IMG/VR virus record: IMGVR_UViG_2814123274_000001
Reading direction: 5' to 3' (one strand)
Source of the DNA: an uncultured virus (IMG/VR IMGVR_UViG_2814123274_000001)
Taxonomy: Duplodnaviria > Heunggongvirae > Uroviricota > Caudoviricetes
Length of the DNA stretch: 23,489 nt
The position numbers and the translations under genes are program-made. The first letter of the stretch is position 1, and each line of letters opens with the position of its first letter. The notes under the pieces are model-generated. The model was not told the DNA's origin. It searched no databases and saw nothing but the letters and a program-made list of their open reading frames with translations. Of this stretch, positions 976-23,163 are shown piece after piece.

Positions 976-1185
976 TCAGAATCTCCTTTTCAAATCTTCG
1001 ATTTCTTCTTCGAGCTTTTTTACGCGGTTAAGCAGACGGCCCTCATAGCCCATAGCCATGAGAGCCATCAGAACTGCCAATACGATATTGACCACACACC
1101 AAAACGGACGGCCAGTGACGCCTGAGATGAAGGCAGCCACAACATTGAACCAAAATATCGTCAGTAAAATGGTCATACCCGTCAC
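976..1185 (-). CDS. Small membrane protein (two hydrophobic segments, coiled-coil tail)
   Basis: Start overlaps the polymerase stop (GTGA); hydrophobic N-terminus. Confidence 0.65.
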   Translation of the reverse strand: MTGMTILLTIFWFNVVAAFISGVTGRPFWCVVNIVLAVLMALMAMGYEGRLLNRVKKLEEEIEDLKRRF

Positions 1186-4100
1186 CTCACATCAAAGGGC
1201 GTCGCAGCGTCTTCATGGGGTTCCCCGGCACTGAACCAGGGCGGCATATCATCCTCGGCCTTCACATAGGGATCATCTGAGATAAACCATTCAAAGTCGC
1301 CGTATTTGGAAATATCCGCGACAGCGGCATCCACCATAGCGTCGTAGTAGCCCCGGTCAATGCCGTCCTCTTTACCGAGCTGTTTGACCATCTCAGACTC
1401 CAGCCAGCGATAGCCCTTGGTCCCACCGGCCAAGGCGTAGCTCTTCTCGCCGGTCTTCTTATCCACGACTTCCCGCAGCAGCAAGCCTCCATTGTAGCCG
1501 GGTTTCATGGGGCAGAAGGAGCCGACCTTTCCCACGAAAATATAATTGTGACCCTGCTCGATCAGTGCGCCAAGTTCTTCATCGGAAACATGCCCCCATG
1601 TCTCAAGTAAGGCTTGATCCTTTTTGCTGGTATGCTGATCAAGGAACTTTTCGCCAGTTGTAGGATTCAAAATATAAGCTGTTTTCCGAAGAACAGAAAC
1701 TCGCTCATACTCGGAAACATCTGGCAAAGTCTCGTTCGTATCCAAATACAGCGCGCTGGTGACCGACTTGGTCTCGCACATATCCTCGAACAAGATTTCC
1801 TCTTTGGAGAACAGTTTCTTGAACACATACGGAATCTGGAACTGGGTGCCGGTCGCCGTCCATTCGCCGGGGTGCTTCCGAATATCACCCGGCACATACC
1901 CATACGCCTGCTGGCATTTCTCCTCCGTGGCATATTTGGCAATGTAGACCGCGTTGTTCACCAGGCACATCCGGTCATAGGTGGCCTCGTGCTCAAAGAC
2001 ATAACCGTACTTTTTGCCGTAATCCATGACGAACTGAATAATCTCCGGCGTTGCGTCCGGGATTTTAATGGAGTCCGTCTTGATGTGGGCAACAGTAAAG
2101 CCCTGTTTCTGGACCTCATGCTTGAGGTTGACCATGAACAGGGCTCCGCGCTTGGCGACGATATTATCTTTGTTCCGGGTGTCCCGGAAGGGATTCTCAA
2201 AGTTGGCCGAGGTCAGGCCATAGACCGAGTTGATGGCGATCTTCAGCGCCTGGGCCAGAGCATCCGCCGAACTCTCGTCCGTCAGGTACTTGGCCAAAGC
2301 GCCGTTCAGCATCTTTTTCGCCTTGTCGAAGTTCTTATGCTTAATCTCCACCCGGGCGTCCTTGATCTCCTGGAACCGTTTGGTGTATTCCGGCCCGAAC
2401 AGCTCCTCGGCGATGATGCTGCTGGGATGCATGGAGGCGATGTCCAGCAGTGCGATATCGCCGTACATACCCGGCTCGGCGTAGACGTAACCGCCTTCGC
2501 CCACCTCCTCGCCGCGATAGATGGATTTGCCGCCTTCAAACTTGTATCCGGGGAAGATGGGACGGCCCTTCTTGTCAAAGACCGTGAATTCATCGAACTC
2601 TGGTTTCCCCATCGTAAACGGCAAATCCCGGTATGGGTCGTTGATTTGGGTCACATCGCCCATATTCCGGTAGCTGAACTGGTCTTGCGGGTGCTTGTTT
2701 CCGCCAAATATAATTCTGGTGGTCAGGGAATTGGTGGTGTCGTTCACCGTCATCCCCGCCACGTCCGCCAGAATCTCCCGAGCCACGAAGTCGGCTTTCC
2801 GGGCGTTGAATACCGCCTCGGTGGCAATGACGTCGTTGTCGCAATACTCCGCGACCTTCTGCCACATATTCTCCGGCACCGGCTGGTCCCAGGGAAGCCC
2901 CAGCTCCTGATGGTGGATACCCAGCTCGATCTCCCATTTCTTCAGGCTCTGCTTAACCGAGCAGAAGTCATATACGTCCGTATAAGAGACGTTATACGCC
3001 TCCCCAAAGAAGCAGTTGTTGCTCCGGGCCTTCTTCTCACTGCTGATGATCTTCTGGGAGAGATTATAGAGCTGCTCATTGGTGTAGCCCATCAGCCGGG
3101 CATACAAAATATGGTTGTCGTACCTCCGGCAGTTGAACCCCACCAGACGGAACTTCATCAGCTCCTCGATCTCCGTGGGTTTTGGATTGATCATCCGGAC
3201 CACGGTCTGCCCGGGGCCTTCGATTTTCCAGTTTACCAGGAACAGGTTAGGGAAGACCTCCACGTCATAGAAGACCAGCTTGGCCTCATCGTTCTTCACC
3301 GCGGGGCCGTCTTCGGCGGATTTGAACGGCATCTTGTTCACCAGCTTGATGCAGTAGTCCGCCTGATTGGTACTGTTGGCCGCGAAGGCCAGGACGGCGT
3401 TGCGCATATCGGTGACGTCATAGGTCAAACCGCTCTCATACGCATCCGTCAGAATTTTGTAGATAAAGTCGATTGAGGGCTTAGTTGCCGGATGAATCTC
3501 CTTATTCAAATTTCGTTTGATCTGAACTCTAAGCCCTTTCTCGCTTTGAATGACTTTGGAATTTACCACGTTGTTTTCTCCTTTCAATGGTAACCCAGAG
3601 CTTATCGTAGCGATAGGCAGGTCGTTGCACTTGGACAATTTGCGGCGCAACGAGCTGTTTCCGGTAAACACCTTGACCTCGATATGGTCGTCGTAGACCC
3701 GGCTGAGCCTGGTCACATCTCCGGAATAAATATAATGCAGGTGGATGCCGCAGCCGCTTTTACTCACCTCCGCATAGGTTGCCGGCCACTTGCCCGCCTC
3801 TTCCAGATTCCGCTCAAAGGACTTTCCGCCCTTGTCATCCGGAATATCAAAGTCGATGACGATGTGGTTCTCCGGCACTTTGACATAGTGAAGTTTTGTG
3901 GTGTCAATGGAGGACAGCTTCGTTGCGACCTTCTCCCATTTCCGCCGGGGCGTGCCCTCCTCATTGGCATACTGCGCCAAACAGCCGGCGCAGTCCCGGT
4001 CGAAGGCGGAGGTCTGTCCCTCCACAAGATTGATGGTGGGATGGGGCGGTTTATCGGCTGCCGGCTTTTCTTCCGGAGCCTGCTCCTCAAACTTTTCCAC

Positions 4101-5384
4101 CCGAAACCCGCTGTAATAGTTCCGAACACGGGAGCCATCTCCCATGCTGAACCGTTCCTCATACTTTCGGAAGTAGTTTTTCAGCTCCTCCTTAAATATC
4201 ATGCGGGAAACTGGATAGGGCACTTTTGCGTCGTCGCAGTAGGTCTTATACATTTCCCAGGCCGATTTCAGCGATACGCCGTCCTCCTGCTTGAACACAT
4301 GGTAGGAGTCCACCACGAAGTTGTAGAAGTCATTGGAGGCCCCCATCATAGAGATGGGAATATAATCGTCATAGTAGTCCGGGTCCTCCAGATAGACCTC
4401 CTGGCAGTGGTACGCAATGCCGCCCAGCTCAAAGGGGATCTGCTTGGTCAGCGTCCGGTACTCCGCCGGGGGCACCTTGTCTCCGGTGGGTGTCACGTCG
4501 ATCAGCCGTCGGATGATGCCCGACTTGGCGTCCGTGATCTTCACCGGCTTGTTAGTTCCCATGATCAGGAACGCCTTGAACCGGTTGGAATAGGCCGAAC
4601 GGAATTTCTCGTTGACCGTCATCATCTCATGGGAGACCAAGCTGTTGATCCGGGTATTGTCCTCAATGCGGGAAAGGTCGCCGTCATGCTGGATCGCCAC
4701 CAGCGGATTGGAGCGAAACGCCTCCAAAGCGAACGCGTTGCTGGAGGAGCCCAGATCCTTTGCGTTGAAGCTGGTGTAGTAGCCCTCGAAGAGCTGCTGG
4801 ATCACATTGATGATCGTGCTCTTTCCCGTTCCCACCGCGCCGTAGAACACCAGGAACTTCTGAATCCGCTTGGATTCCCCGGAGACGATGGCCCCGATAC
4901 TCCACTCGATCTTGTGGCGTTCCTCTGGAGAATATAATGTGGATACCAGCTTGTCCCACGCCGGCGTCTCTCCCGGCTCCAGAGGATAGGGCAGGGACTT
5001 GCTGGCATAGTCGCGTTTTCCCGCTTTTGTGTTGGAAAATATCAGTTTCTCGTCAAGCATGTGGAACTGGTCTTTCATCTGTTTCTGGCAATACTTGTGC
5101 CAGGTGTCGATCATGCCAGTCTCCGCATCCCACATGTGCAGGACACGAATGTTACCGTCAAAGCGCTTGCGGTTTTCTTCTGCGTATTGGTCCAGTTCAC
5201 GGTCGATCAAGTCGACCGCATCCTGTTCATCAGTCGACCATATTCCCCGTTCGTCAATCCATATTGCATAGAAGTCGCCGCCTCTGATCATGAGGTCGTT
5301 ACTTTTCTTGATGATAAACTTGGGATAGATCTCGATGACACCGCGTTTCCCGCTGCGCGTAGAAATCATCAAGAAGTCCAGCAT
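1182..5384 (-). CDS. Fused SF3 (D5-like) helicase + AEP/prim-pol primase + family B DNA polymerase with 3'-5' exonuclease
   Basis: Walker A GAVGTGKST, Walker B IQHDGD, motif C GTN; primase VIDFD and SKSGCGIHLHY; ExoI FYDVEVF, ExoII GFNCRRYD, ExoIII YCDNDV; PolB LDIASMHPS, KIAINSVYG, IKTDS. Confidence 0.9.
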   Translation of the reverse strand: MLDFLMISTRSGKRGVIEIYPKFIIKKSNDLMIRGGDFYAIWIDERGIWSTDEQDAVDLIDRELDQYAEENRKRFDGNIRVLHMWDAETGMIDTWHKYCQKQMKDQFHMLDEKLIFSNTKAGKRDYASKSLPYPLEPGETPAWDKLVSTLYSPEERHKIEWSIGAIVSGESKRIQKFLVFYGAVGTGKSTIINVIQQLFEGYYTSFNAKDLGSSSNAFALEAFRSNPLVAIQHDGDLSRIEDNTRINSLVSHEMMTVNEKFRSAYSNRFKAFLIMGTNKPVKITDAKSGIIRRLIDVTPTGDKVPPAEYRTLTKQIPFELGGIAYHCQEVYLEDPDYYDDYIPISMMGASNDFYNFVVDSYHVFKQEDGVSLKSAWEMYKTYCDDAKVPYPVSRMIFKEELKNYFRKYEERFSMGDGSRVRNYYSGFRVEKFEEQAPEEKPAADKPPHPTINLVEGQTSAFDRDCAGCLAQYANEEGTPRRKWEKVATKLSSIDTTKLHYVKVPENHIVIDFDIPDDKGGKSFERNLEEAGKWPATYAEVSKSGCGIHLHYIYSGDVTRLSRVYDDHIEVKVFTGNSSLRRKLSKCNDLPIATISSGLPLKGENNVVNSKVIQSEKGLRVQIKRNLNKEIHPATKPSIDFIYKILTDAYESGLTYDVTDMRNAVLAFAANSTNQADYCIKLVNKMPFKSAEDGPAVKNDEAKLVFYDVEVFPNLFLVNWKIEGPGQTVVRMINPKPTEIEELMKFRLVGFNCRRYDNHILYARLMGYTNEQLYNLSQKIISSEKKARSNNCFFGEAYNVSYTDVYDFCSVKQSLKKWEIELGIHHQELGLPWDQPVPENMWQKVAEYCDNDVIATEAVFNARKADFVAREILADVAGMTVNDTTNSLTTRIIFGGNKHPQDQFSYRNMGDVTQINDPYRDLPFTMGKPEFDEFTVFDKKGRPIFPGYKFEGGKSIYRGEEVGEGGYVYAEPGMYGDIALLDIASMHPSSIIAEELFGPEYTKRFQEIKDARVEIKHKNFDKAKKMLNGALAKYLTDESSADALAQALKIAINSVYGLTSANFENPFRDTRNKDNIVAKRGALFMVNLKHEVQKQGFTVAHIKTDSIKIPDATPEIIQFVMDYGKKYGYVFEHEATYDRMCLVNNAVYIAKYATEEKCQQAYGYVPGDIRKHPGEWTATGTQFQIPYVFKKLFSKEEILFEDMCETKSVTSALYLDTNETLPDVSEYERVSVLRKTAYILNPTTGEKFLDQHTSKKDQALLETWGHVSDEELGALIEQGHNYIFVGKVGSFCPMKPGYNGGLLLREVVDKKTGEKSYALAGGTKGYRWLESEMVKQLGKEDGIDRGYYDAMVDAAVADISKYGDFEWFISDDPYVKAEDDMPPWFSAGEPHEDAATPFDVR

Positions 5385-7716: not shown

Positions 7717-8682
7717 TCACAGGGTCTGGTGGGTAGCCAGGGCGTCGGTGATGTCGCCCACCACGTTGAAGTCCAGAACGAAGGAACGCTCATACCCATT
7801 CACAAAGTCCACGGCCTTCTCGCGGCAAACCTCGAAGATGCCGAAGTCCACGAAATTGTCGCCCATAGGCTCCTTGTCGTCATAGATCCACCCCACCACG
7901 GCGCCAGCCTTGGTCAGCGGGAACCCGAGCATCTCATAGACTTCGTTGAGGAACAGATGGCCGCGGGACTTGAGCCGGTCGTTCGCCTGGGACTGCCGGG
8001 CCAGCAGATAGAACCGGTTCTGCTCCGCGTCCTTCATGTAGGCGGGGTGTCCCTCGTCAAAGATGCGGGCATAGGGGCTGTACTTGGAGGGGTCCCAGCC
8101 CTCGTCCACGACGTCCACGGTCTCCTTGACCTTCTTTTCTTTGCCCTTTTCATCCACAACGGTGGTCTCGATCTCCTTGGCCTTGAGGTTGTACCGGAGC
8201 TCCTTTTCCACCTGCTCGCCGAATCGCTCCAGCACCCGGCCGCGATAGTCCTTAAAGGACTGGTCCAGCGTCGCATAGGCCGCCGCCAGCGCCATGTTGC
8301 GCTTTCTCAGAATTTTGTGACTGGTGAGAATGCAGGTGATGGATGCCGCGCCCAGCAGAACGGCGGGGGCATACAGCTTGACATACTGGAACCCGGTGTG
8401 GGAGTAGACCTGAATGCGGTCATTGCGGGCGTCTTCCTGGGTATAGAGCTCACCTGCCGGGGTCACGCCGGACTCCTCCGCATTCTGAATCCGGTCCATA
8501 TCATCGCCGGTCTTCTCCGCAACCTTGAGCGCCTTGGGGGTGGCCTGGCAGGCCATGACAGCGCTCACCACCACGCCGACCACTCCGGCTGCCACTAGGA
8601 GCTCCGGGCTCTTCTTCTGGAGCTGGAACCCAATCTTGTTGAACGTCAGGTTCATAGACTTGACAAGTTCGTTCTTCTTCAT
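7717..8682 (-). CDS. DUF6353-like phage protein (paralog 1)
   Basis: KKSPELLVAAG...ATPKAL, YAPA, RNMALAAAY, GHLFLNEVY..LG, VGW; AGGAGG RBS. Confidence 0.75.
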   Translation of the reverse strand: MKKNELVKSMNLTFNKIGFQLQKKSPELLVAAGVVGVVVSAVMACQATPKALKVAEKTGDDMDRIQNAEESGVTPAGELYTQEDARNDRIQVYSHTGFQYVKLYAPAVLLGAASITCILTSHKILRKRNMALAAAYATLDQSFKDYRGRVLERFGEQVEKELRYNLKAKEIETTVVDEKGKEKKVKETVDVVDEGWDPSKYSPYARIFDEGHPAYMKDAEQNRFYLLARQSQANDRLKSRGHLFLNEVYEMLGFPLTKAGAVVGWIYDDKEPMGDNFVDFGIFEVCREKAVDFVNGYERSFVLDFNVVGDITDALATHQTL

Positions 8683-8684
8683 GA

Positions 8685-9209
8685 TCAAATGTCCTCCTTA
8701 GAGAATGATTTCGCAATGGATTTATAGATTTTTCCGACATTCTGAAGGTTTCCGTTGAACTCCTCCAAAATATCATCGAGCTTATCGTCAAACTTGTCGG
8801 CGATCTGCTCCTTAGCCTTCTGCACAACCTCTTTCTTGAGGCGGCTTTCATCGATTTTGGCCACACTTTTTGCGATCTGGTCGGTTACCCCGTCCGAAAT
8901 CGCGTCATAGTGCTCCTTCACGGCGGCGCCGACCCGGGCCTCGATCTCCCGCTTAACGTCGTCCACCACCTCGTCCGTAGCCCGTTTTACCGCGGAATAG
9001 GACTCCCGGTCCACCGCACGCTGCACCGCCTGGTCGATGACCTTGGCCGGAATATCAACCTCAGTCTCGTTTGCCAGCCGGTCAATGCTGGTGTCCAGCT
9101 TGTCACATACCGCCTTCATCCTGGAATGGACGCCGACGGCATAGCCAACACCCAGCAATCCCAGGATACAGATGCCGACGCCAACGAAGGAATCGGTATT
9201 CAGCTTCAT
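8685..9209 (-). CDS. Hypothetical protein with N-terminal TM segment and long helical region
   Basis: ATG at 9209 overlapping upstream stop (ATGA). Confidence 0.7.
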   Translation of the reverse strand: MKLNTDSFVGVGICILGLLGVGYAVGVHSRMKAVCDKLDTSIDRLANETEVDIPAKVIDQAVQRAVDRESYSAVKRATDEVVDDVKREIEARVGAAVKEHYDAISDGVTDQIAKSVAKIDESRLKKEVVQKAKEQIADKFDDKLDDILEEFNGNLQNVGKIYKSIAKSFSKEDI

Positions 9210-10670: not shown

Positions 10671-10742
10671 CGTAAAGTCCTCCTTGTCATATAATGTTCC
10701 ATAGATGGTTCTCCATAATAGGAGATGCAATTTTTGCGGATG

Positions 10743-11507
10743 TCACCAGCCGATGTACCGTGGCGGGTTGCGGTGTCCGATCACCAGATAGGGGATGCCG
10801 TCCACCAGTTGAGAACTGAAATCGAACTCGACCCACCCCTTATCCACGTCCCAGCCAAGATTGTCACCAATGGCCGGATCACAGGAAGGGAGGCCGAGCT
10901 CTTCCAAAAAGTCGTTGACCGTGATCTTTACCTCGTCCCGCAGCCGCTTATTCAGTGTGTTCTCAACCCCGCGGAGGGTTTCATAATCTGATTTGAAACA
11001 GGCGTTGGTCAGCGGGTCAAAGCAGGGCGTCTCGCCCCGGCCGGTGGGGATGAACTTTCGCTCCGGCACCCCGGCCTGCTCCAGCTGTTCCTTCGCCACG
11101 GCGTCCCGAATGGCCTGCTCCTTCTTCGGCCCTACGACTTCCACCGCCTTATCCTTGTACTCCTTCAGAGCAGTCTCGGAAATGGTATAGGCCGTGACCA
11201 GGGCCGCGTTCCGCCGTGCGCTGATGGAGCTGGCCCCAATAATGCAGGCGGCGGAGCATACGCCGGTAACGGCGGCCGGAATATAACATTTCCAGGTGGT
11301 TTTGACGATCTCAGAGGTGGTCAGGCGTTTCCCGTCCTCAATCTCCCTGTCGTCCACCATACGAAGCGCCTTGGGGGTGGCCCTTACCGCCATAACGGCA
11401 GCCGCCGCCATCCCGGCAATGCCGATGCCTGTCAAAATGGCCGGGCTGTGTTTTCGCATGGTCTTTTGCAGTGATTTCAGCGTGTTTGCGATGGCCTGTT
11501 TGTTCAC
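10743..11507 (-). CDS. DUF6353-like phage protein (paralog 2)
   Basis: GTG at 11507 with GAGGAG RBS; KHSPAILTGIG...AVRATPKAL, YIPA, RRNAALVTAY, NDFLEELG, LGW. Confidence 0.75.
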   Translation of the reverse strand: MNKQAIANTLKSLQKTMRKHSPAILTGIGIAGMAAAAVMAVRATPKALRMVDDREIEDGKRLTTSEIVKTTWKCYIPAAVTGVCSAACIIGASSISARRNAALVTAYTISETALKEYKDKAVEVVGPKKEQAIRDAVAKEQLEQAGVPERKFIPTGRGETPCFDPLTNACFKSDYETLRGVENTLNKRLRDEVKITVNDFLEELGLPSCDPAIGDNLGWDVDKGWVEFDFSSQLVDGIPYLVIGHRNPPRYIGW

Positions 11508-11537
11508 AATGCCTTCTCCTCTCAAATATAATTTTGC

Positions 11538-11840
11538 TCAACGCTCGATCGCTTTGATGTCGTCGAGGAATTCCCATATGGTCTCTGCCGCAATCTTGAA
11601 AATCCGGTACTGGGCGTCTGTGTTGCATGTCTCGGAGTAAATCTCCAGCTTTGACGCGAACCGCTCCACGGTCTCCGAGGCCAGCGTCCACGGGTGGTCC
11701 CAGACCTGCTGCAACAGTTCCTCCAAGGCCCATCTGGAGAACGTAACTTCCTCGGCCTCATGCCGGGGCCAATCAGACCTTGGCGGGTCTTCAAACCCCT
11801 TCAAAACCGACATGAGAAACAGAATCGCCCGTTCATTCAT
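11538..11840 (-). CDS. Hypothetical protein (paralog family with 38-397 and 13553-13885)
   Basis: SRWALEELL...VERFASKL...IFKIAAE pattern; start at 11840 inferred. Confidence 0.7.
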   Translation of the reverse strand: MNERAILFLMSVLKGFEDPPRSDWPRHEAEEVTFSRWALEELLQQVWDHPWTLASETVERFASKLEIYSETCNTDAQYRIFKIAAETIWEFLDDIKAIER

Positions 11841-11874
11841 GGAAACCGGCCCCTGCAAAAGCAAAGAGCCCCGG

Positions 11875-12051
11875 TCAGGGCTCCTCGCTTCCAGATGTTC
11901 CATGCTCACGGGCGGCAAGCGCTTCGTTCACTTTTTCCTCGATGATCGCGTCCTGTTCCTTATCGTCCGCCCAGCTGGACAGCAATGTTCCAATCCCGCC
12001 GAGGGCCAGTCCGACCAGGGACAGCACCTTAAATATCGTTTTCTGGTTCAT
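11875..12051 (-). CDS. Small membrane protein (58 aa)
   Basis: AGGAGG RBS, downstream of motif copy 12080-12109. Confidence 0.7.
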   Translation of the reverse strand: MNQKTIFKVLSLVGLALGGIGTLLSSWADDKEQDAIIEEKVNEALAAREHGTSGSEEP

Positions 12052-12113
12052 AAACTCAAACCTCCTGTTTTTCATGGTTCTCCATAATAGGAGATGCTAT
12101 TTCTGCGGACTGG

Positions 12114-12944
12114 TCAGATCTCCATGTCCTCCCACTCTTCGTAAGTGACCGGCGGGAACGGGGCGTCGATGATCCAGCACTCCACCTCGCCGTTCAGCCC
12201 GTCGTCCACCACCGTCCTCTGATGGTCGAAGTCCACCCAGTAGAGCCCGTCCGAAACCATCCATCCGATCTTGTCCCCCTCCGGCGTCTTGCTGATGCCC
12301 AGAAAGTCATAAAAATCATTCAGCGTGATGAATCCGCCGCTAAGAGCAAAATTCCGGTTGAGATGGTATTCGGCCTGCAAGACTTGGCTGATCGTGGCCT
12401 GGAAATACCGGTCGGAAATGGCGTCGTAGAACAACCGCTCCTCCTCGTCGGCCTCCTCAAACCCCAGCGAGGTTGTGGCCACAAAGGTTCCGGCGTAAAT
12501 GGGGTGCTTTTCGCTCTGTTCTACGGCCAGCGCGGCCATCACCTTTCTGTGGGCCTCCTCGCCGTAGAGCTCTTTCACCTTCTGCTTGTAGCGGTTGAGC
12601 GAACGGCTCGCCAGGGCGTAGGCGCTGACCAGAGAGGCCTGCTGACGCCGGTTCAGGACATTTGCGCCGAAAATACACCCGATTGTAGCGATTCCCGTGA
12701 CTGCCGCGGGAACATAGCATCGCCAGCAAGCTCCTATCGTCTCCATTCGGGTCAAATTTCCGCCGTTTTCCACGTTTTTGGCCTCTTTTTCCCGCTCAAT
12801 GCACTTGAGCGCCTTGGGGGTGGCCCTTACCGCCAGGACCGCTGTGGCCACCACGCCGGCACTGCCGGCGCACGTCAAAATAGTTGGCGCCGCTTTTTGA
12901 AGCGCCTTTCCAGCCCTTTTGAACAGGGCGGGTTTTGCTTTCAC
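12114..12944 (-). CDS. DUF6353-like phage protein (paralog 3)
   Basis: APTILTCAG...AVRATPKAL, YVPA, RRQQASLVSAY, LNDFYDFLG, IGW; AAGGAGG RBS. Confidence 0.75.
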   Translation of the reverse strand: MKAKPALFKRAGKALQKAAPTILTCAGSAGVVATAVLAVRATPKALKCIEREKEAKNVENGGNLTRMETIGACWRCYVPAAVTGIATIGCIFGANVLNRRQQASLVSAYALASRSLNRYKQKVKELYGEEAHRKVMAALAVEQSEKHPIYAGTFVATTSLGFEEADEEERLFYDAISDRYFQATISQVLQAEYHLNRNFALSGGFITLNDFYDFLGISKTPEGDKIGWMVSDGLYWVDFDHQRTVVDDGLNGEVECWIIDAPFPPVTYEEWEDMEI

Positions 12945-12957
12945 GTCCGTACCCTCC

Positions 12958-13530
12958 TTAAATAGAATCGAAGAGATGATGCTTCCGGCAGATCTCGCAG
13001 AACTCGCCTCTCAGAGCGTTATGTACCTCCAAAATCACAGGAACCTCAGGCGGCTCCGGCGTCTGAATGGAATGTCCTAGCACCTCTTCCACGAAATCGA
13101 CAACCTTCCCGGCCGTACCCTCCAGAACATAGCCGGTATAGGCGGTGATGACCAGTTTTTCACGCTCGGTCAGCCCGGGTTTTCGGTGGAACCGGCGGTA
13201 TTTCTGATAAAGCTCCGGGATGCCATGCTCCTCGACCGACCGTTTCCAGTCCAGATGGTGCTTGTCCGCATCGAGGATCACCATGCCGTGCCTGACCGCC
13301 CGCACCAGCTCCGCCTCGCTTGCCCCGTACCAGCACATATCGGCAATCAGGTTGGAGTTTTTCCCCACCTCGATCCGATGCTGCTTGGGGGAACGGAACA
13401 CCGGCGCCGCCTGGCCGGGAACGGCATACTCCGCCCTGGGGTCGAACTTCCGCAGCGATTCAAGATTCTCCTCGCTCAGAAAGAGGTCGATACCCCGTTT
13501 GGTCAAAATATCAAGATAGGTCTTCGCCAT
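12958..13530 (-). CDS. Protein resembling an isolated non-catalytic segment of a phage DFDGD-type RNA polymerase, fused to a small C-terminal phage domain
   Basis: FDPRAEY...GKNSNLIADM..GASEAELVRAVRHGMVILDADKHHLDWKRS..HGI..LYQKY matches from memory a segment of large RNAP-like proteins of related phages; no DxDGD here. Confidence 0.5.
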   Translation of the reverse strand: MAKTYLDILTKRGIDLFLSEENLESLRKFDPRAEYAVPGQAAPVFRSPKQHRIEVGKNSNLIADMCWYGASEAELVRAVRHGMVILDADKHHLDWKRSVEEHGIPELYQKYRRFHRKPGLTEREKLVITAYTGYVLEGTAGKVVDFVEEVLGHSIQTPEPPEVPVILEVHNALRGEFCEICRKHHLFDSI

Positions 13531-13552
13531 GATGTTTTTCTCCTTTCAAATT

Positions 13553-13885
13553 TCAATCTCTGAAATATAATCCGTCCAGAATGGACTGGGCCGCGTCTCT
13601 GGCCACGGAAAAGGTAAAACCGGGATCTCCGGTGTCTCTTGCCGACGCGGACATTTTCTCCACGAACCGCGCCACTACGGCGGTGGGAGAGACTCCCTTC
13701 TCCCGGTCGATCTCCCGAAGCAGCTGCTCCAACGTGAACCTTTGCAGACCAAGCTCCTGGAAATAGGAATCATTTGCCGGGACCAGGCCCATGTTATACT
13801 CAATGTCGCCGATGAGGTCCTCGATAAAGTCGCCCATGACCACATCGGGATATCCACGTTCCGCTTTCATGGCGTCAGGGCTCAT
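13553..13885 (-). CDS. Hypothetical protein (paralog family with 38-397 and 11538-11840)
   Basis: QRFTLEQLL...VVARFVEKM...FSVARDAAQSILD. Confidence 0.65.
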   Translation of the reverse strand: MSPDAMKAERGYPDVVMGDFIEDLIGDIEYNMGLVPANDSYFQELGLQRFTLEQLLREIDREKGVSPTAVVARFVEKMSASARDTGDPGFTFSVARDAAQSILDGLYFRD

Positions 13886-14333
13886 AGGGAACCTGCTCCA
13901 CGTCTCCGCCCGGAACTGTCACCGAGCGCATGAGCATGCCGTTCTCCTCGTCGAAATAAATGGCGTCTGCCCGATGATCCCAGTCCTCAAACTGTTCCGA
14001 GATATTCTTCCTCCGGGACCGCCGCAGGGCAATCAGCTCCTCGGCAATGACGCGCCGCCATGCCCGTGCGATGGGCTTCCGGCTCTGGGCAAGGACGTTA
14101 TACAGGCCCGTCTCTGTGATGAACGTGACCTTTCTCCGCTGCCCGCCCACGATGGCCGGGAGCACCAGCTTCTCGTCGTCTTCACAGACGTTGGTCAGGT
14201 TCCAGACGTTGTTGTCCCCATAGCTCAGCAGCTCGGCCACGTCCGTGGCCTTGAACAAGGGCTCATCCAAATTCCCATACACCGGGAGGGTACGGTTCTT
14301 GAATTGGATACTGCCTACGATTTTGACTTCCAT
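13875..14333 (-). CDS. BRO-N domain protein (antirepressor-like DNA-binding)
   Basis: EPLFKATDVAELLSY...GGQRRKVTFITETGLYNVLAQSRKPIARAWRRVI is a typical BRO-N signature. Confidence 0.85.
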   Translation of the reverse strand: MEVKIVGSIQFKNRTLPVYGNLDEPLFKATDVAELLSYGDNNVWNLTNVCEDDEKLVLPAIVGGQRRKVTFITETGLYNVLAQSRKPIARAWRRVIAEELIALRRSRRKNISEQFEDWDHRADAIYFDEENGMLMRSVTVPGGDVEQVPYEP

Positions 14334-14646: not shown

Positions 14647-14690
14647 TATTTTCTCCTTTCTGAAATTATGTTTCTCCATAAAAGTAAAAA

Positions 14691-14764
14691 GAGAAAGTGC
14701 CGGACTCGAACCGGTGCCCTCCGGGCATTTCAGCCTGTTGCTCTACCATTGAGCTAACCTCCTC
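14691..14764 (-). tRNA. Degenerate tRNA-like RNA (Phe GAA-like loop; probable pseudo-tRNA)
   Basis: GAGGAGGT TA GCTC AATGGTA GAGC ... CCGG TTCGAGT CCGG C ACTTTCTC: canonical D and T arms, wobble-rich acceptor stem, irregular anticodon arm (GGC-TGAAAT-GCC), no CCA. Confidence 0.65.
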
Positions 14765-14828
14765 TCCATAATAGGAATTGCAAAATCTGCGGAAGAAAGG
14801 CAAAAGCCCCTGTCACGGGGCCTCCGCC

Positions 14829-15044: not shown

Positions 15045-15140
15045 GCTCCTTTACCTCCTTATCGAGCATCGTTCTCCGTAATAGAACCTGCGAAATGAGC
15101 GCAAACAGAAAAGGAAAGAGCCCTTGTCCGGGCCCACCCC

Positions 15141-15290: not shown

Positions 15291-15339
15291 AAACCGCAGC
15301 TCCCTTCCAAAATTAGTTGGTTTTCCATAAAGGGAGTTG

Positions 15340-15699
15340 TCAAATCGGCGTATGGTCAAAGACCGTCTCCCACGGCTGCTTTGGCAGAGGCTTCATTTTC
15401 AGCGCCCACATGATTTGCCGGATGGTCACCGTGGGGTAGAGGCCGTCCGTACCCTTCGTCGCCCTGCTGTCAAAGTATGCCCGGAATCCAGGGTGCAAAT
15501 ATAATGGGTCGGTGAGCCAGTCGTCCACTTCCGTCCAAAAGGTCGCCTTTGTCTCCAGGTCAAACCGCTGCTGAATCACCGCTAGGCCCCGCTCCTCCAC
15601 CAAGAACAGGGTGCAGGAGTTGTAGACCGGGTGGTCGCACCGATAACGCTGCCCATACATGGACAGATAAATCGGAGGTTTCTCAAAGTGATAGCGCAT
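15340..15699 (-). CDS. Conserved hypothetical phage protein
   Basis: ATG at 15699 with GGAGG RBS. Confidence 0.75.
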   Translation of the reverse strand: MRYHFEKPPIYLSMYGQRYRCDHPVYNSCTLFLVEERGLAVIQQRFDLETKATFWTEVDDWLTDPLYLHPGFRAYFDSRATKGTDGLYPTVTIRQIMWALKMKPLPKQPWETVFDHTPI

Positions 15700-15750
15700 G
15701 GTTTCCTCCAAATACAAAAGAAAGAGTCCCGGTCAGGACTCCTCCTCTTG

Positions 15751-15942: not shown

Positions 15943-16057
15943 GACTGGTTCCTCCTCAAAATAGTTTCTCATAATACACTCTGCCATTTCTGCGCCCAAA
16001 GCAAATATAAAGAGGAAAAGCCCCTGTTACGTGACTTTTCCTCCGCGTTGATAATGC

Positions 16058-16399: not shown

Positions 16400-16474
16400 T
16401 ACCTCCTAAGCAGTCCGGGGCCTTGCGGCTCCGGCGTTCTTGAGGTAAAGAGCGCTCTCTCCTCATAAAGCGCC

Positions 16475-17531: not shown

Positions 17532-17580
17532 ATGCTTTATCTCCTTTCAAAATTTAGAGTTGGCTCCATAATAGCCGGTG

Positions 17581-17799
17581 TTATTCGTGCGGGATGAAGT
17601 CTTTGACTCTGACCCGGAACGCAACCCGCTTTTTACGGAGAATTGCGGATACGTCCGTATCCAGCTCCAAATATAAATGTGGCCCGTCCACCGGGTCTGA
17701 ATGGTCAACCCGTAAATCACCAACCGGACGGTCTTGAAACAGACGCATGCCAATCAAAATACCGATGCAAAGCGCTGCCATCACTGCGAAAATAACCAT
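17581..17799 (-). CDS. Small membrane-anchored protein
   Basis: GGAGGAG RBS; N-terminal TM then GDLRVDHSDPVDGPHLYLEL. Confidence 0.7.
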   Translation of the reverse strand: MVIFAVMAALCIGILIGMRLFQDRPVGDLRVDHSDPVDGPHLYLELDTDVSAILRKKRVAFRVRVKDFIPHE

Positions 17800-19643: not shown

Positions 19644-19714
19644 AATATCTACCTCCTGATTTTGTTCTCCATAATAGGCGGTGCCGTTTGTGCGGAAAAG
19701 GGAGAGCCGCCGTA

Positions 19715-20446: not shown

Positions 20447-20554
20447 GAGAAGGAAATGGCTTCAGAGTCGTGCCCGCTTATTGCGTTGCCTACTCCGTAC
20501 CCGGCTTCGTAGCTTGCCGCTGGATTTCCACCAGCATCTATCCATTTTCTTCTC
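20447..20554 (-). ncRNA. Candidate structured non-coding RNA (about 110 nt)
   Basis: Closing stem GAGAAGAAAATGG / CCATTTCCTTCTC, internal hairpins, begins at motif copy 20552-20581. Confidence 0.5.
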
Positions 20555-20688
20555 CATAAAGGGATTTGCAAAATCTGCGGAAGACCTCAGAGCTCCGCTT
20601 TCTAACTTAGATTAGACCGGTCTATCTTAAGTTAAAGAGGGGGAGAGGGTAAAAGAAAGAGCCGCTGTAAGGGCGGCTCAATCCTTTG

Positions 20689-20945: not shown

Positions 20946-21272
20946 TTATGGATACCTCCATAAAAGGAGCTGCGCTTTCTGCGAAAGCCACCGCAGCATG
21001 GTCATCTCGCAGGGATAGTCCTCAAACCCAATCGTCTCACAGGTAATCAGCCCCTCCAGCACGCCGATGATAACCTCCGCCTCATACTGCTTGTAAGGGA
21101 CCAGCAGCTCCGACAGTTCCCGGTGAACCGCCCCGCAGTGGACGCACCGAAACCGGCGCATAGGCACCCTGGCCGTCTCCCGCCCCTTCGTCCGTACCAG
21201 TCTCGGCACGCTGTCGTAGTATTTCAGCTCCCCGCCGCACTTAGGGCAGGTGGATTGGTCCCGCATCACCAT
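20946..21272 (-). CDS. DUF6431-like Zn-ribbon protein
   Basis: CPKCGGEL...RRFRCVHCGAVHREL...PYKQYEAEVI. Confidence 0.7.
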   Translation of the reverse strand: MVMRDQSTCPKCGGELKYYDSVPRLVRTKGRETARVPMRRFRCVHCGAVHRELSELLVPYKQYEAEVIIGVLEGLITCETIGFEDYPCEMTMLRWLSQKAQLLLWRYP

Positions 21273-21656: not shown

Positions 21657-21721
21657 GATGATTCCCCTTTCAAAATTAGTCTTCCATAAAAGACGATGTT
21701 ATTTCAGCGAAAGGAGCCGCT

Positions 21722-21925
21722 ATGAAGAAACCGAAACATGTGAACCCCAAAATCTTTTTGCACAAAGTCTACACCGAAGAGGGCGGAGTAAAAGAGCATA
21801 ACAAAAATCAGCAGGCGGTTGGGGCGCTGAAACTCGCAGGAGCTGTCTTGATTGCGACCAAGCTCTTGCTGATGTTAGATAAAGTCGAGGGCCGCCCAAT
21901 CAAGGCACTCAAAGAGAGGCGGTGA
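21722..21925 (+). CDS. Hypothetical protein directly upstream of the integrase
   Basis: AAAGGAG RBS; stop overlaps or abuts the integrase start. Confidence 0.55.
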   Translation: MKKPKHVNPKIFLHKVYTEEGGVKEHNKNQQAVGALKLAGAVLIATKLLLMLDKVEGRPIKALKERR

Positions 21926-23163
21926 TCCGAATGCTAACCCAATGTCCAGAGTGCGAACTGCCGGTGAGCGACAAGGCAACCGCCTGTCCCCATTGCGGCT
22001 ACCCGCTGAAACCCTCTGAAAAACAGAAAAGACCCCGCAAATCCAACAAGCGTCGGCGACTGCCCAACGGCTTCGGTCAGATCAGCGAAATCAAAAACCG
22101 CAATTTAAGAAACCCCTTCCGGGCAATGGTAACAGTGGGGAAGACGCCGGACGGGAAACCAATCTGCAAACCGTTGAAACCGGAGTCCTACTTCGCCACC
22201 TATAACGACGCCTATGCCGCCCTGGTGGAATATAACAAGAACCCCTATGACCTGGAGCCGTCCATCACCATGCAGGAACTCTATGACAAATGGCTCCCGG
22301 AGTATGAGAAGACGGTGAAGAGCACCAAATCTGCCACCTCGGCCTGGGCCTACTGTTCCGGCGTTTATAAGATGCGGGTCATGGACATCCGTGCCCGCCA
22401 TGTAAAAGGATGCATGGAAGAGGGGGTGGCCGTCATCCGCGGCAAGGAACAGCACCCCACCGCCACCATGAAGAACCAGATCAAGTCCCTGTTCAACATG
22501 CTGCTGGACTACGCCCTGGAGTATGAGCTGGTGGACCGGAACTACTCCCGCACCTTCAACCTCACCGAAGAAACGGTCAAGGAGATCCAGTCGGTGAAAA
22601 AGGAGCATATCGCCTTCACCGACGAAGAGATGGACCTGCTCTGGGCCAATGCCAGCAGCAAGCAGGGCGTCGACATCCTGCTCATCCAATGTTATTCCGG
22701 TTGGCGTCCTCAGGAGCTCGGTTTACTGGAACTGAAAGATGTGGACTTGGAGAACTGGACCTTCCAGGGCGGCATGAAGACGGACGCCGGCGAGAACCGC
22801 GTCGTCCCCATCCACTCCCGCATTCAAGACCTAGTACTCCGAAAATATCAGGAGGCGGAGGCACTGGGCAGCCCCTATCTGCTCAACTGGGCCGACCCCA
22901 ATAACCGCAACCGGAAAAATCTCAAGCTGACTTATGCCCGGTATCAGAAAGCATTCGAGCGCATCCGGGACGAGCTGAAGCTGAACCCCAACCACCGCCC
23001 ACACGACGGCCGTACCCACTTTGTCACGATGGCCAAGCGCTACGGCGTGGACGAGTACGCCATCAAGTACATGGTGGGACACAAGATCTCCGACATAACG
23101 GAAAAAGTCTACACCCGCCGGGAGTTTGCCTGGCTCCGGGAAGAGATCGAGAAAATAAAATAG
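21922..23163 (+). CDS. int: Tyrosine recombinase / phage integrase with N-terminal Zn ribbon (start 21922 GTG or 21931 ATG)
   Basis: CPEC/CPHC; RRRLPNGFGQI arm-binding-like segment; catalytic R (SGWRPQEL), K (MKT), HDGR, VGH, VYT. Confidence 0.92.
   Translation: MIRMLTQCPECELPVSDKATACPHCGYPLKPSEKQKRPRKSNKRRRLPNGFGQISEIKNRNLRNPFRAMVTVGKTPDGKPICKPLKPESYFATYNDAYAALVEYNKNPYDLEPSITMQELYDKWLPEYEKTVKSTKSATSAWAYCSGVYKMRVMDIRARHVKGCMEEGVAVIRGKEQHPTATMKNQIKSLFNMLLDYALEYELVDRNYSRTFNLTEETVKEIQSVKKEHIAFTDEEMDLLWANASSKQGVDILLIQCYSGWRPQELGLLELKDVDLENWTFQGGMKTDAGENRVVPIHSRIQDLVLRKYQEAEALGSPYLLNWADPNNRNRKNLKLTYARYQKAFERIRDELKLNPNHRPHDGRTHFVTMAKRYGVDEYAIKYMVGHKISDITEKVYTRREFAWLREEIEKIK

Follow-up and report, generated by a model that had tools for sequence, protein, structure and literature searches.

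The window analysed here is a stretch of 23,489 nucleotides from an uncultured virus (IMG/VR record IMGVR_UViG_2814123274_000001) and is a piece of the genome of a temperate phage of a gut bacterium. A tyrosine integrase lies on the plus strand (21922-23163), and the minus strand encodes a primase-polymerase of 1,400 amino acids (1182-5384), a single-strand annealing protein, a cell-wall hydrolase, a Bro-N protein and three DUF6353/phrog_2152 paralogues (7717-8688, 10743-11525 and 12114-12944), two of which, when compared, were 32-36% identical. The same strand carries two small phrog_10740 ORFs (38-397 and 11538-11918). The second of these, together with ORF 11875-12075, forms a small-ORF cassette just upstream of the DUF6353 gene at 10743-11525, and the three DUF6353 genes share DNA repeats of 66-74 nt close to their 5' ends.

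The gene studied here, which we call the short gene and its product the short form, occupies 12958..13530 on the minus strand (stop codon at 12958-12960) and encodes 190 amino acids, as the ORF list gives it and as the initial annotation had claimed. A canonical Shine-Dalgarno sequence, AGGAG, can be read at 13540..13544 on the same strand, 9 nt 5' of the ATG, so that the gene does have its own ribosome-binding site. The stop codon of the upstream ORF lies 22 nt from the start of the short gene, and the end of the short gene lies 13 nt from the next start. Its neighbourhood is accessory in character (Bro-N, DUF6353 paralogues) and about 37 kb away from the gene for the long, polymerase-like protein described below (the long form). 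The order Bro-N, ORF110, short gene, DUF6353, ORF66, ORF126, DUF6353 was conserved at all 26 loci. In a clade with copies of 71% identity (L020-L026 and L041-L043, about 2491-3000), approximately 500 nt separate the ORF110 homologue and the short gene, which leaves space for an extra small ORF absent from the phage of the window.

A promoter-like repeated motif of 30-36 nt occurs in at least 12 copies in the window, all in a single orientation. On the minus strand it reads approximately TCCGCA-n6-GCA-n4-CCT(A/T)TTATGGAG and extends into the ribosome-binding site or the ATG of whichever ORF comes next. Copies in this reading lie at 10705-10740, 12074-12109, 14668-14703, 14758-14793, 15068-15103, 15317-15352, 15961-15996, 17558-17593, 19661-19696, 20546-20581, 20950-20985 and 21676-21711, with further positions at 16459, 17004, 18107, 18436 and 19913. 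One copy ends 1 nt 5' of the ATG of ORF 11875-12075, and a similar copy was found about 900 nt upstream of the long-form gene in another viral record (G014; L126 8861-8889). GC-rich, terminator-like hairpins with T-runs are present on the minus strand at 11858-11886, 14796-14824, 15110-15138, 15716-15744 and 20651-20679; some of them stand just upstream of motif copies, which suggests short transcription units. The copy at 14758..14793 (minus strand; repeat family D1-D3) is listed as the nearest upstream of the short gene, four genes away, and a possible unit starting from it would comprise ORF14335-14679, the Bro-N gene, ORF13553-13885, the short gene and the DUF6353 gene, its boundary being a prediction. 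A scan for sigma-70-type promoters near the short gene returned 4 sites against 2.1 expected, none of them convincing. Metatranscriptomic contigs from two libraries of one study overlap the gene (X18, 13019-13532 and 12598-12968; X20, 12466-13103 and 13379-14333); since these are contigs only, with possible DNA carry-over, and a DNA run of the same sample contains the stretch, the libraries do not establish transcription.

The short gene is a real gene under purifying selection, though a fast-changing one. It was intact and 573 nt long in all 25 DNA copies (the window, the nearest viral record G001 and 23 others), at dS values of up to about 1.2. We found 52 relatives in the databases (104-333 aa), of which 23 are exactly 190 aa long and 34 fall between 186 and 191 aa, with a lowest identity of 57% among the full-length 190-aa relatives; further viral records also carry the gene, and the short form is thus conserved in other phages. 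Genome matches came from three Clostridiales (a MAG, strain CCNA10 and Muriventricola aceti); CCNA10, a Clostridiales bacterium, and M. aceti are cultured lysogens whose copies are 71% identical. Pairwise dN/dS over the whole gene ranged from 0.095 to 0.50 and was mostly 0.10-0.35, compared with 0.006-0.078 for the long gene in matching phage pairs. By part, the values were 0.11-0.37 for the N-terminal domain and 0.07-0.26 for the C-terminal domain, against 0-0.067 for the equivalent segment within the long form, and across nine diverged pairs the non-synonymous rate of the short form was about 4-35 times that of its long-form counterpart. This faster evolution is also compatible with a function that has drifted away from the polymerase.

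Residues 19-113 of the short form match phrog_4291 ('RNA-dependent RNA polymerase') at positions 534-631 of 909, with an E value of 2.6e-26 and 93.2 bits, far beyond chance. The initial annotation had placed the N-terminal part in the segment that follows DFDGD in large RNA polymerase-like phage proteins, and that placement was confirmed by the PHROG profile and by a tblastn search of cultured phages, which gave matches in 250 records (Arthrobacter, Gordonia, Streptomyces, Lactococcus 1706-like, Faecalibacterium FP_oengus and others). The match fell inside a long protein of 921-1,029 aa in all four annotations examined (FP_oengus, Camille, 1706 and Scarif). In the PHROG match and in a column comparison with 60 long forms, the segment common to both reads G-x-x-S-N-L-I-x-D-M ... 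V-V-I-D-A-x-K-H-x-L-D. It begins 25 residues after ADFDGD in gp55 of Faecalibacterium phage FP_oengus and likewise 25 residues past D522 in the 906-aa long form of the nearest viral record. The matched part amounts to only about 98 of the 909 profile positions and starts, at 534, past the catalytic loop. Correspondingly, DxDGD is missing from all 190 residues of the short form, and the barrel domains are absent, as the AF2 model has no strands of three or more residues; the description of the protein as non-catalytic therefore stands. With both barrels and the Asp triad missing, the short form cannot polymerise. A 190-aa relative that is 84% identical (BFVD/UniProt A0A8S5QFQ9) is named 'RNA-dependent RNA polymerase'; this name overstates what it is, and the protein cannot be one. 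Naming of the long forms is itself inconsistent, with 'RNA-dependent RNA polymerase' in RefSeq and 'helix-turn-helix DNA-binding domain protein' in SEA-PHAGES.

The same phages also carry the long form. The nearest viral record, G001 (95% of sampled words), encodes, besides the short form, a 906-aa protein whose match to phrog_4291 spans the full length (1,198.6 bits). Both forms were present in 15 of 22 further viral records with the short gene, one long copy being cut by a contig end; the long form was absent from the other seven, which are 40-65% complete, and among records at least 90% complete both forms were found in five of five. The long-form copy of the segment retains every residue that is invariant across 60 long forms, which indicates that the short form is no replacement for a lost part. 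Conversely, the query matched 251 places in the 250 cultured-phage records with a long form, so that a second copy is almost never present and the short form is not a general partner of the polymerase. In one complete genome, the long gene has an exonuclease gene ahead of it and is followed by small ORFs and then by genes for a virion structural protein and the large terminase. FP_oengus is similar, its long gene coming after an exonuclease gene and before genes for a virion structural and a tail protein, and in actinophages Camille and Scarif the exonuclease gene is likewise found just ahead of the long gene. GenBank labels the long protein 'structural' in phages 1706 and ReqiPoco6, a hint that it may be packaged in the virion.

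Several lines of evidence bear on what the long form may be. At least 26 of 40 long forms gave sub-threshold matches to the Pfam RdRP profile (PF05183), the best at 21.8 bits against a cut-off of 23.8. These matches start at 424-429 in 25 long forms and at 380 in one, and their profile ends range from 457 to 579, 12 of them lying beyond 512; in L004 (1498-4218), residues 509-620 align to profile positions 426-544. The family is termed a putative RNA polymerase in passages of PMC2919709 and bioRxiv 10.1101/842583, one preprint gives an HHpred value of 95.7% to the RdRP family, and RNA polymerase activity is established, according to PMC5467207, for YonO, a distant relative of the long form. We regard the long form as polymerase-like and as a putative RNA polymerase. 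Near its N terminus (residues ~11-26) the long form carries a nearly invariant motif, 'HYG.KRRSGRYPWGSG..PYQH', in which G13, S18, G19, R20, G24 and G26 are invariant across 60 sequences. In one IMG/VR contig (L044, 2232-5038) the long form is split into ORFs of 597 and 344 aa. The frame changes precisely ahead of the invariant 'MG..SNLI' helix, whose Met is the first residue of the second ORF; the break could reflect faulty sequencing, a genuine split or a site of frameshifting.

In the AF2 model (mean pLDDT 87.7; block means of 84-97 over residues 1-110), the short form is all-helical and consists of a long hairpin (helices 48-67 and 72-91), two short helices, a linker and a three-helix C-terminal domain. 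The N-terminal domain (residues 1-114; 13189..13530, minus strand) is, by the phrog_4291 match, the comparison with 60 long forms and the AF2 model, a paralogue of the post-DFDGD segment. For QDE-1, PMC9508822 reports catalytic residues D1007/1009/1011, bridge-helix residues L1082, M1084, N1087 and R1091, and a trigger loop at 1102-1136 in which V1115, D1116 and K1119 are placed on the NTP, the bridge helix and trigger loop being packed as a rigid unit; according to the P23-45 paper (bioRxiv 10.1101/2022.12.01.518664), single-subunit two-barrel polymerases generally have DPBB-A followed by a helix, the bridge helix and the trigger loop. The long form has D518/520/522, then an invariant M573-G574 and an invariant I/V604-D605-x-x-K608-H609. 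Compared by hand from the printed residues, the spacing from Met to (V/I)-D is 31 residues in both the long form (M573/I604) and QDE-1 (M1084/V1115). The short form keeps this spacing of 31, with V55 followed by L86-D87-x-x-K90, and its L86-D87-A88-D89-K90 corresponds to I604-D605-A-A-K608 of the long form. The copied segment is probably a bridge helix with the N-terminal part of a trigger loop, as judged from motif, spacing and literature: the helix at residues 48-67 (13330..13389, minus strand) would be the bridge-helix equivalent on the basis of the AF2 helix, its conservation and the QDE-1 residues, and the helices within residues 72-111 (13198..13317, minus strand) would be the trigger-loop equivalent on the basis of the AF2 model, the column comparison and the QDE-1 motif.

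Residues were not retained uniformly. G56, N60, L61, I62, D64, M65, A70, K90, L93, I104, L107 and Y111 are kept at 90-100% among short forms, whereas constraint is looser at three positions that do not vary in any of 60 long forms: M573, which is V55 (60%), D605, which is D87 (77%), and H609, which is H91 (60%). Invariant and specific to the short form are C66 and W67, which lie at the hairpin turn together with a near-invariant Y68 (90%), as well as G82, which replaces a Ser, and R112-R113. The pattern of kept and relaxed residues is that expected if the fold and one surface matter and catalysis does not.

The initial annotation had proposed AlphaFold and Foldseek as a check; the short-form model proved all-helical, and Foldseek gave no match in the PDB at E <= 0.001. 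A wide VIA search with the model reached a best Z of 5.9, for designed or generic helical bundles and no polymerase, and the two fold searches speak neither for nor against a polymerase fold. A PDB sequence search with the short protein gave 0 matches, and a hairpin profile gave only chance-level matches to PDB sequences. The long-form profile matched HTH proteins in the PDB and a phage beta' at E 1.4-1.5, the latter over the DFDGD loop only, and neither QDE-1 nor gp66. As the PDB profile searches missed these two proteins, the bridge-helix/trigger-loop assignment rests on motif, spacing and literature. The Atlas search with the N-terminal domain gave no usable match, and beyond the short form's own family (84% identity) BFVD offered only a 101-aa protein of Streptomyces phage TieDye, an unverified lead at E 0.07.

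The C-terminal part (residues ~120-182) shares no homology with the polymerase, in agreement with the earlier description of a fusion to a small unrelated domain. It is a DUF7736-like three-helix domain (residues ~120-190; 12961..13173, minus strand), as delimited from Pfam, PHROG, Atlas and invariant columns. Residues 123-181 align to positions 2-57 of 59 in DUF7736 (PF24875) with 21.5 bits and E 2.7e-4, below the gathering cut-off of 25. At E <= 0.01 the profile matched 15 of 30 members of the short family, the best at 5.1e-6, and two relatives of the short form carry a precomputed PF24875 label. A match to phrog_13999 was also weak (E 7.6e-4), and the nearest Atlas feature clusters were DUF7736 phage proteins of 66-84 aa (score 0.85). 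Among 30 sequences, H153, C181, H184 and H185 never vary and C178 is retained in at least 90%, which suggests that these residues probably form a metal site. A search with this domain alone against a set of 5.8 billion proteins returned only fragments of its own family, and we found no mention of DUF7736 in the literature searched.

An exhaustive profile-free search yielded 812 proteins at E <= 0.001 and 250 at E <= 1e-10. The majority are long forms of 830-1,034 aa, matched at about 480-700, and about 12-18 are more distant stand-alone proteins of 105-127 aa that contain the helical unit alone (mini forms). These begin with Met and end just past an 'EL..KY' motif; some lie on contigs of 5-106 kb, so that they are not truncated by contig ends. 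Our careful tree had 52 rows and 111 columns and included 7 of 30 short forms and 28 of 60 long forms, with MINI_P0211, a long branch, left out. In it the 190-aa family was monophyletic (99/100) and grouped with 12 of 17 mini forms (99/97), apart from the long form of its own phage. Joining the short family to its own long form lowered lnL by 41.3 and was not rejected by the AU test (p 0.103; MINI_P0211 left out). We therefore favour an old, separate origin of the short family but do not consider it proven. A quick tree, also without MINI_P0211, was set aside as unreliable, its free search having overlooked a better tree.

Some relatives are rearranged. In P0156 a motif 'RRSGRY.WP', which resembles the 'RRSGRYPWG' of the long-form N terminus, is joined directly to the hairpin unit, and the protein adjoins a long form in the careful tree; at least this mini form resembles a long form whose interior has been deleted. 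In P0028 a deletion has fused the N terminus of the upstream ORF (window 13553-13885) to the short form, and the C-terminal part is frameshifted in P0043 and in P0049, which comes from Intestinimonas timonensis. The mini form P0064 was found at 0 loci in viral contigs. The A7 alignment gave only a frameshifted long form in viral contigs and none in metagenomes, and P0156 was matched at 80 metagenomic loci, all of them long forms, and none of these has another ORF with the hairpin less than 10 kb away.

Taken together, we tentatively propose, at a little less than even probability, that the short form is an accessory two-part protein, a non-catalytic modulator or mimic that would act in trans and be tied to the phage polymerase. 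Its first part (~1-114) is a free-standing paralogue of the helical unit that follows ADFDGD in the 906-aa protein of the same phage, and its second (~120-190) the small DUF7736-like domain with its probable Cys/His metal site. Such a protein could present a polymerase-like bridge-helix/trigger-loop surface in trans to phage transcription, through which it may bind the polymerase itself or vie with it for a factor that usually docks there; a further contact would come from the DUF7736 domain. A broader version, which we consider unlikely, holds that phages with YonO/RdRP-like polymerases have repeatedly released the bridge-helix/trigger-loop unit, as the 190-aa family and the mini forms, to serve as a mimic of an active-site element. 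Such a mimic might dock on a polymerase, either its own or that of an incoming rival phage, and switch it off or retune it, or it might shield the polymerase by absorbing inhibitors.

A job independent of the polymerase is a real, though less probable, alternative: the old polymerase-derived helices may have been exapted as a helical body, an oligomerisation module or a DNA- or protein-binding module for a DUF7736-type protein. This would account for the faster evolution of the short form relative to the long-form segment, the relaxation of long-form invariants alongside the new C66-W67-Y68 and G82, the placement of the family with 12 mini forms (99/97) away from its own long form, the accessory surroundings (Bro-N, DUF6353) with the long gene at a distance, and the lack of the short form in most long-form phages. 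However, the long form was found in every sufficiently complete genome with the short form, and the retention of N60, D64, K90 and the hydrophobic core at 90-100% goes beyond what a plain helical scaffold needs. We think it rather improbable that the short form is instead a decoy or anti-defence mimic, whose free surface would soak up a host or rival-phage factor that otherwise blocks the phage polymerase. An accessory, lineage-restricted distribution, a place in a variable early/accessory gene block and a dN/dS several-fold above that of the polymerase, as expected of conflict genes, are consistent with it; against it, the dN/dS is well under 1, and no defence or inhibitor partner is known or came to light here.

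That the gene is what is left of a dead partial duplication, having survived by chance and been scored as an ORF, is very improbable and already strongly disfavoured. Its homology is indeed to a fragment of a larger gene, and damaged copies exist (the frameshifted P0043 and P0049 and the deletion fusion P0028), but 25 of 25 copies are intact at exactly 573 nt despite the divergence noted above, dN/dS is 0.1-0.35, 190-aa relatives extend down to 57% identity, and the gene has a canonical Shine-Dalgarno sequence and invariant residues in both domains. Hardly credible is an obligatory trans subunit needed by the polymerase, for which split two-barrel enzymes (archaeal A'/A'', jumbo-phage beta' pieces) offer a precedent and the L044 long form is broken exactly before the 'MG..SNLI' helix, but the long form of this lineage has its own complete segment with all invariant residues and cultured long-form phages have no second copy. 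A dispensable modulator or mimic acting in trans fits best a protein that is non-catalytic, accompanies the long form, is under purifying selection, changes fast, is lacking in most long-form phages and sits in an accessory or early block away from the polymerase gene. For an exapted scaffold the agreement is poorer, and these facts speak against both a dead remnant and an obligatory subunit.

Beyond what the initial annotation had noticed, our analysis adds an intact full-length copy in the same lineage, the probable bridge-helix/trigger-loop identity of the copied segment and a DUF7736-like second domain. Neither of the two outcomes that would have refuted the initial annotation, a lack of alignment to DFDGD-containing proteins or a lack of conservation of the short form, was obtained. 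Within the two-barrel superfamily, the 1706/YonO-like polymerases form a branch that has received little study, and Forrest et al. 2017 left open whether extra factors are needed. The short form, which is easily expressed and has 71%-identical copies in cultured lysogens, is a ready-made probe of how these polymerases are regulated. If the broader reading as a released mimic of an active-site element is true, it would be the first core catalytic element of a two-barrel RNA polymerase to be used as a diffusible regulator. We found no paper on a stand-alone copy of the post-catalytic segment in the literature searched, and the passages of PMC2919709 and bioRxiv 10.1101/842583 that name the long family a putative RNA polymerase mention no short form.

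Among known proteins, the short form is homologous to positions ~534-631 of the phage 1706-type YonO-like proteins (phrog_4291; Lactococcus 1706 orf75, FP_oengus gp55, actinophage 'HTH DNA-binding domain proteins'). It differs from them in having 190 aa rather than ~900-1,030 aa, in lacking the DPBB barrels, DxDGD and the terminal HTH domains, in its extra DUF7736-like domain and in evolving several-fold faster. That domain is here fused to a polymerase-derived unit, whereas the DUF7736 clusters that we found are stand-alone. In overall build, a long hairpin and a small Cys/His domain, the short form resembles the secondary-channel factors DksA and Gre, which combine a helical hairpin with a small globular domain that is zinc-binding in DksA. 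This is an analogy only; we found no homology, and these factors were absent from the Foldseek and VIA results of the short form. A precedent for a duplicated transcription component becoming a trans-acting regulator is TFS4 of Sulfolobus, described in PMC5715097 as a transcription-factor paralogue turned RNA polymerase inhibitor; unlike the short form, it derives from a cleavage factor rather than from the polymerase core, and the two have no sequence relation. An equivalent would be the bridge-helix/trigger-loop unit of two-barrel polymerases, which likewise follows DPBB-A, forms a helix-turn-helix and has a Met and then (V/I)-D-x-x-K. In all enzymes described, that unit belongs to the catalytic polypeptide or to an obligatory subunit of a split enzyme, whereas here it is a separate protein beside an intact enzyme.
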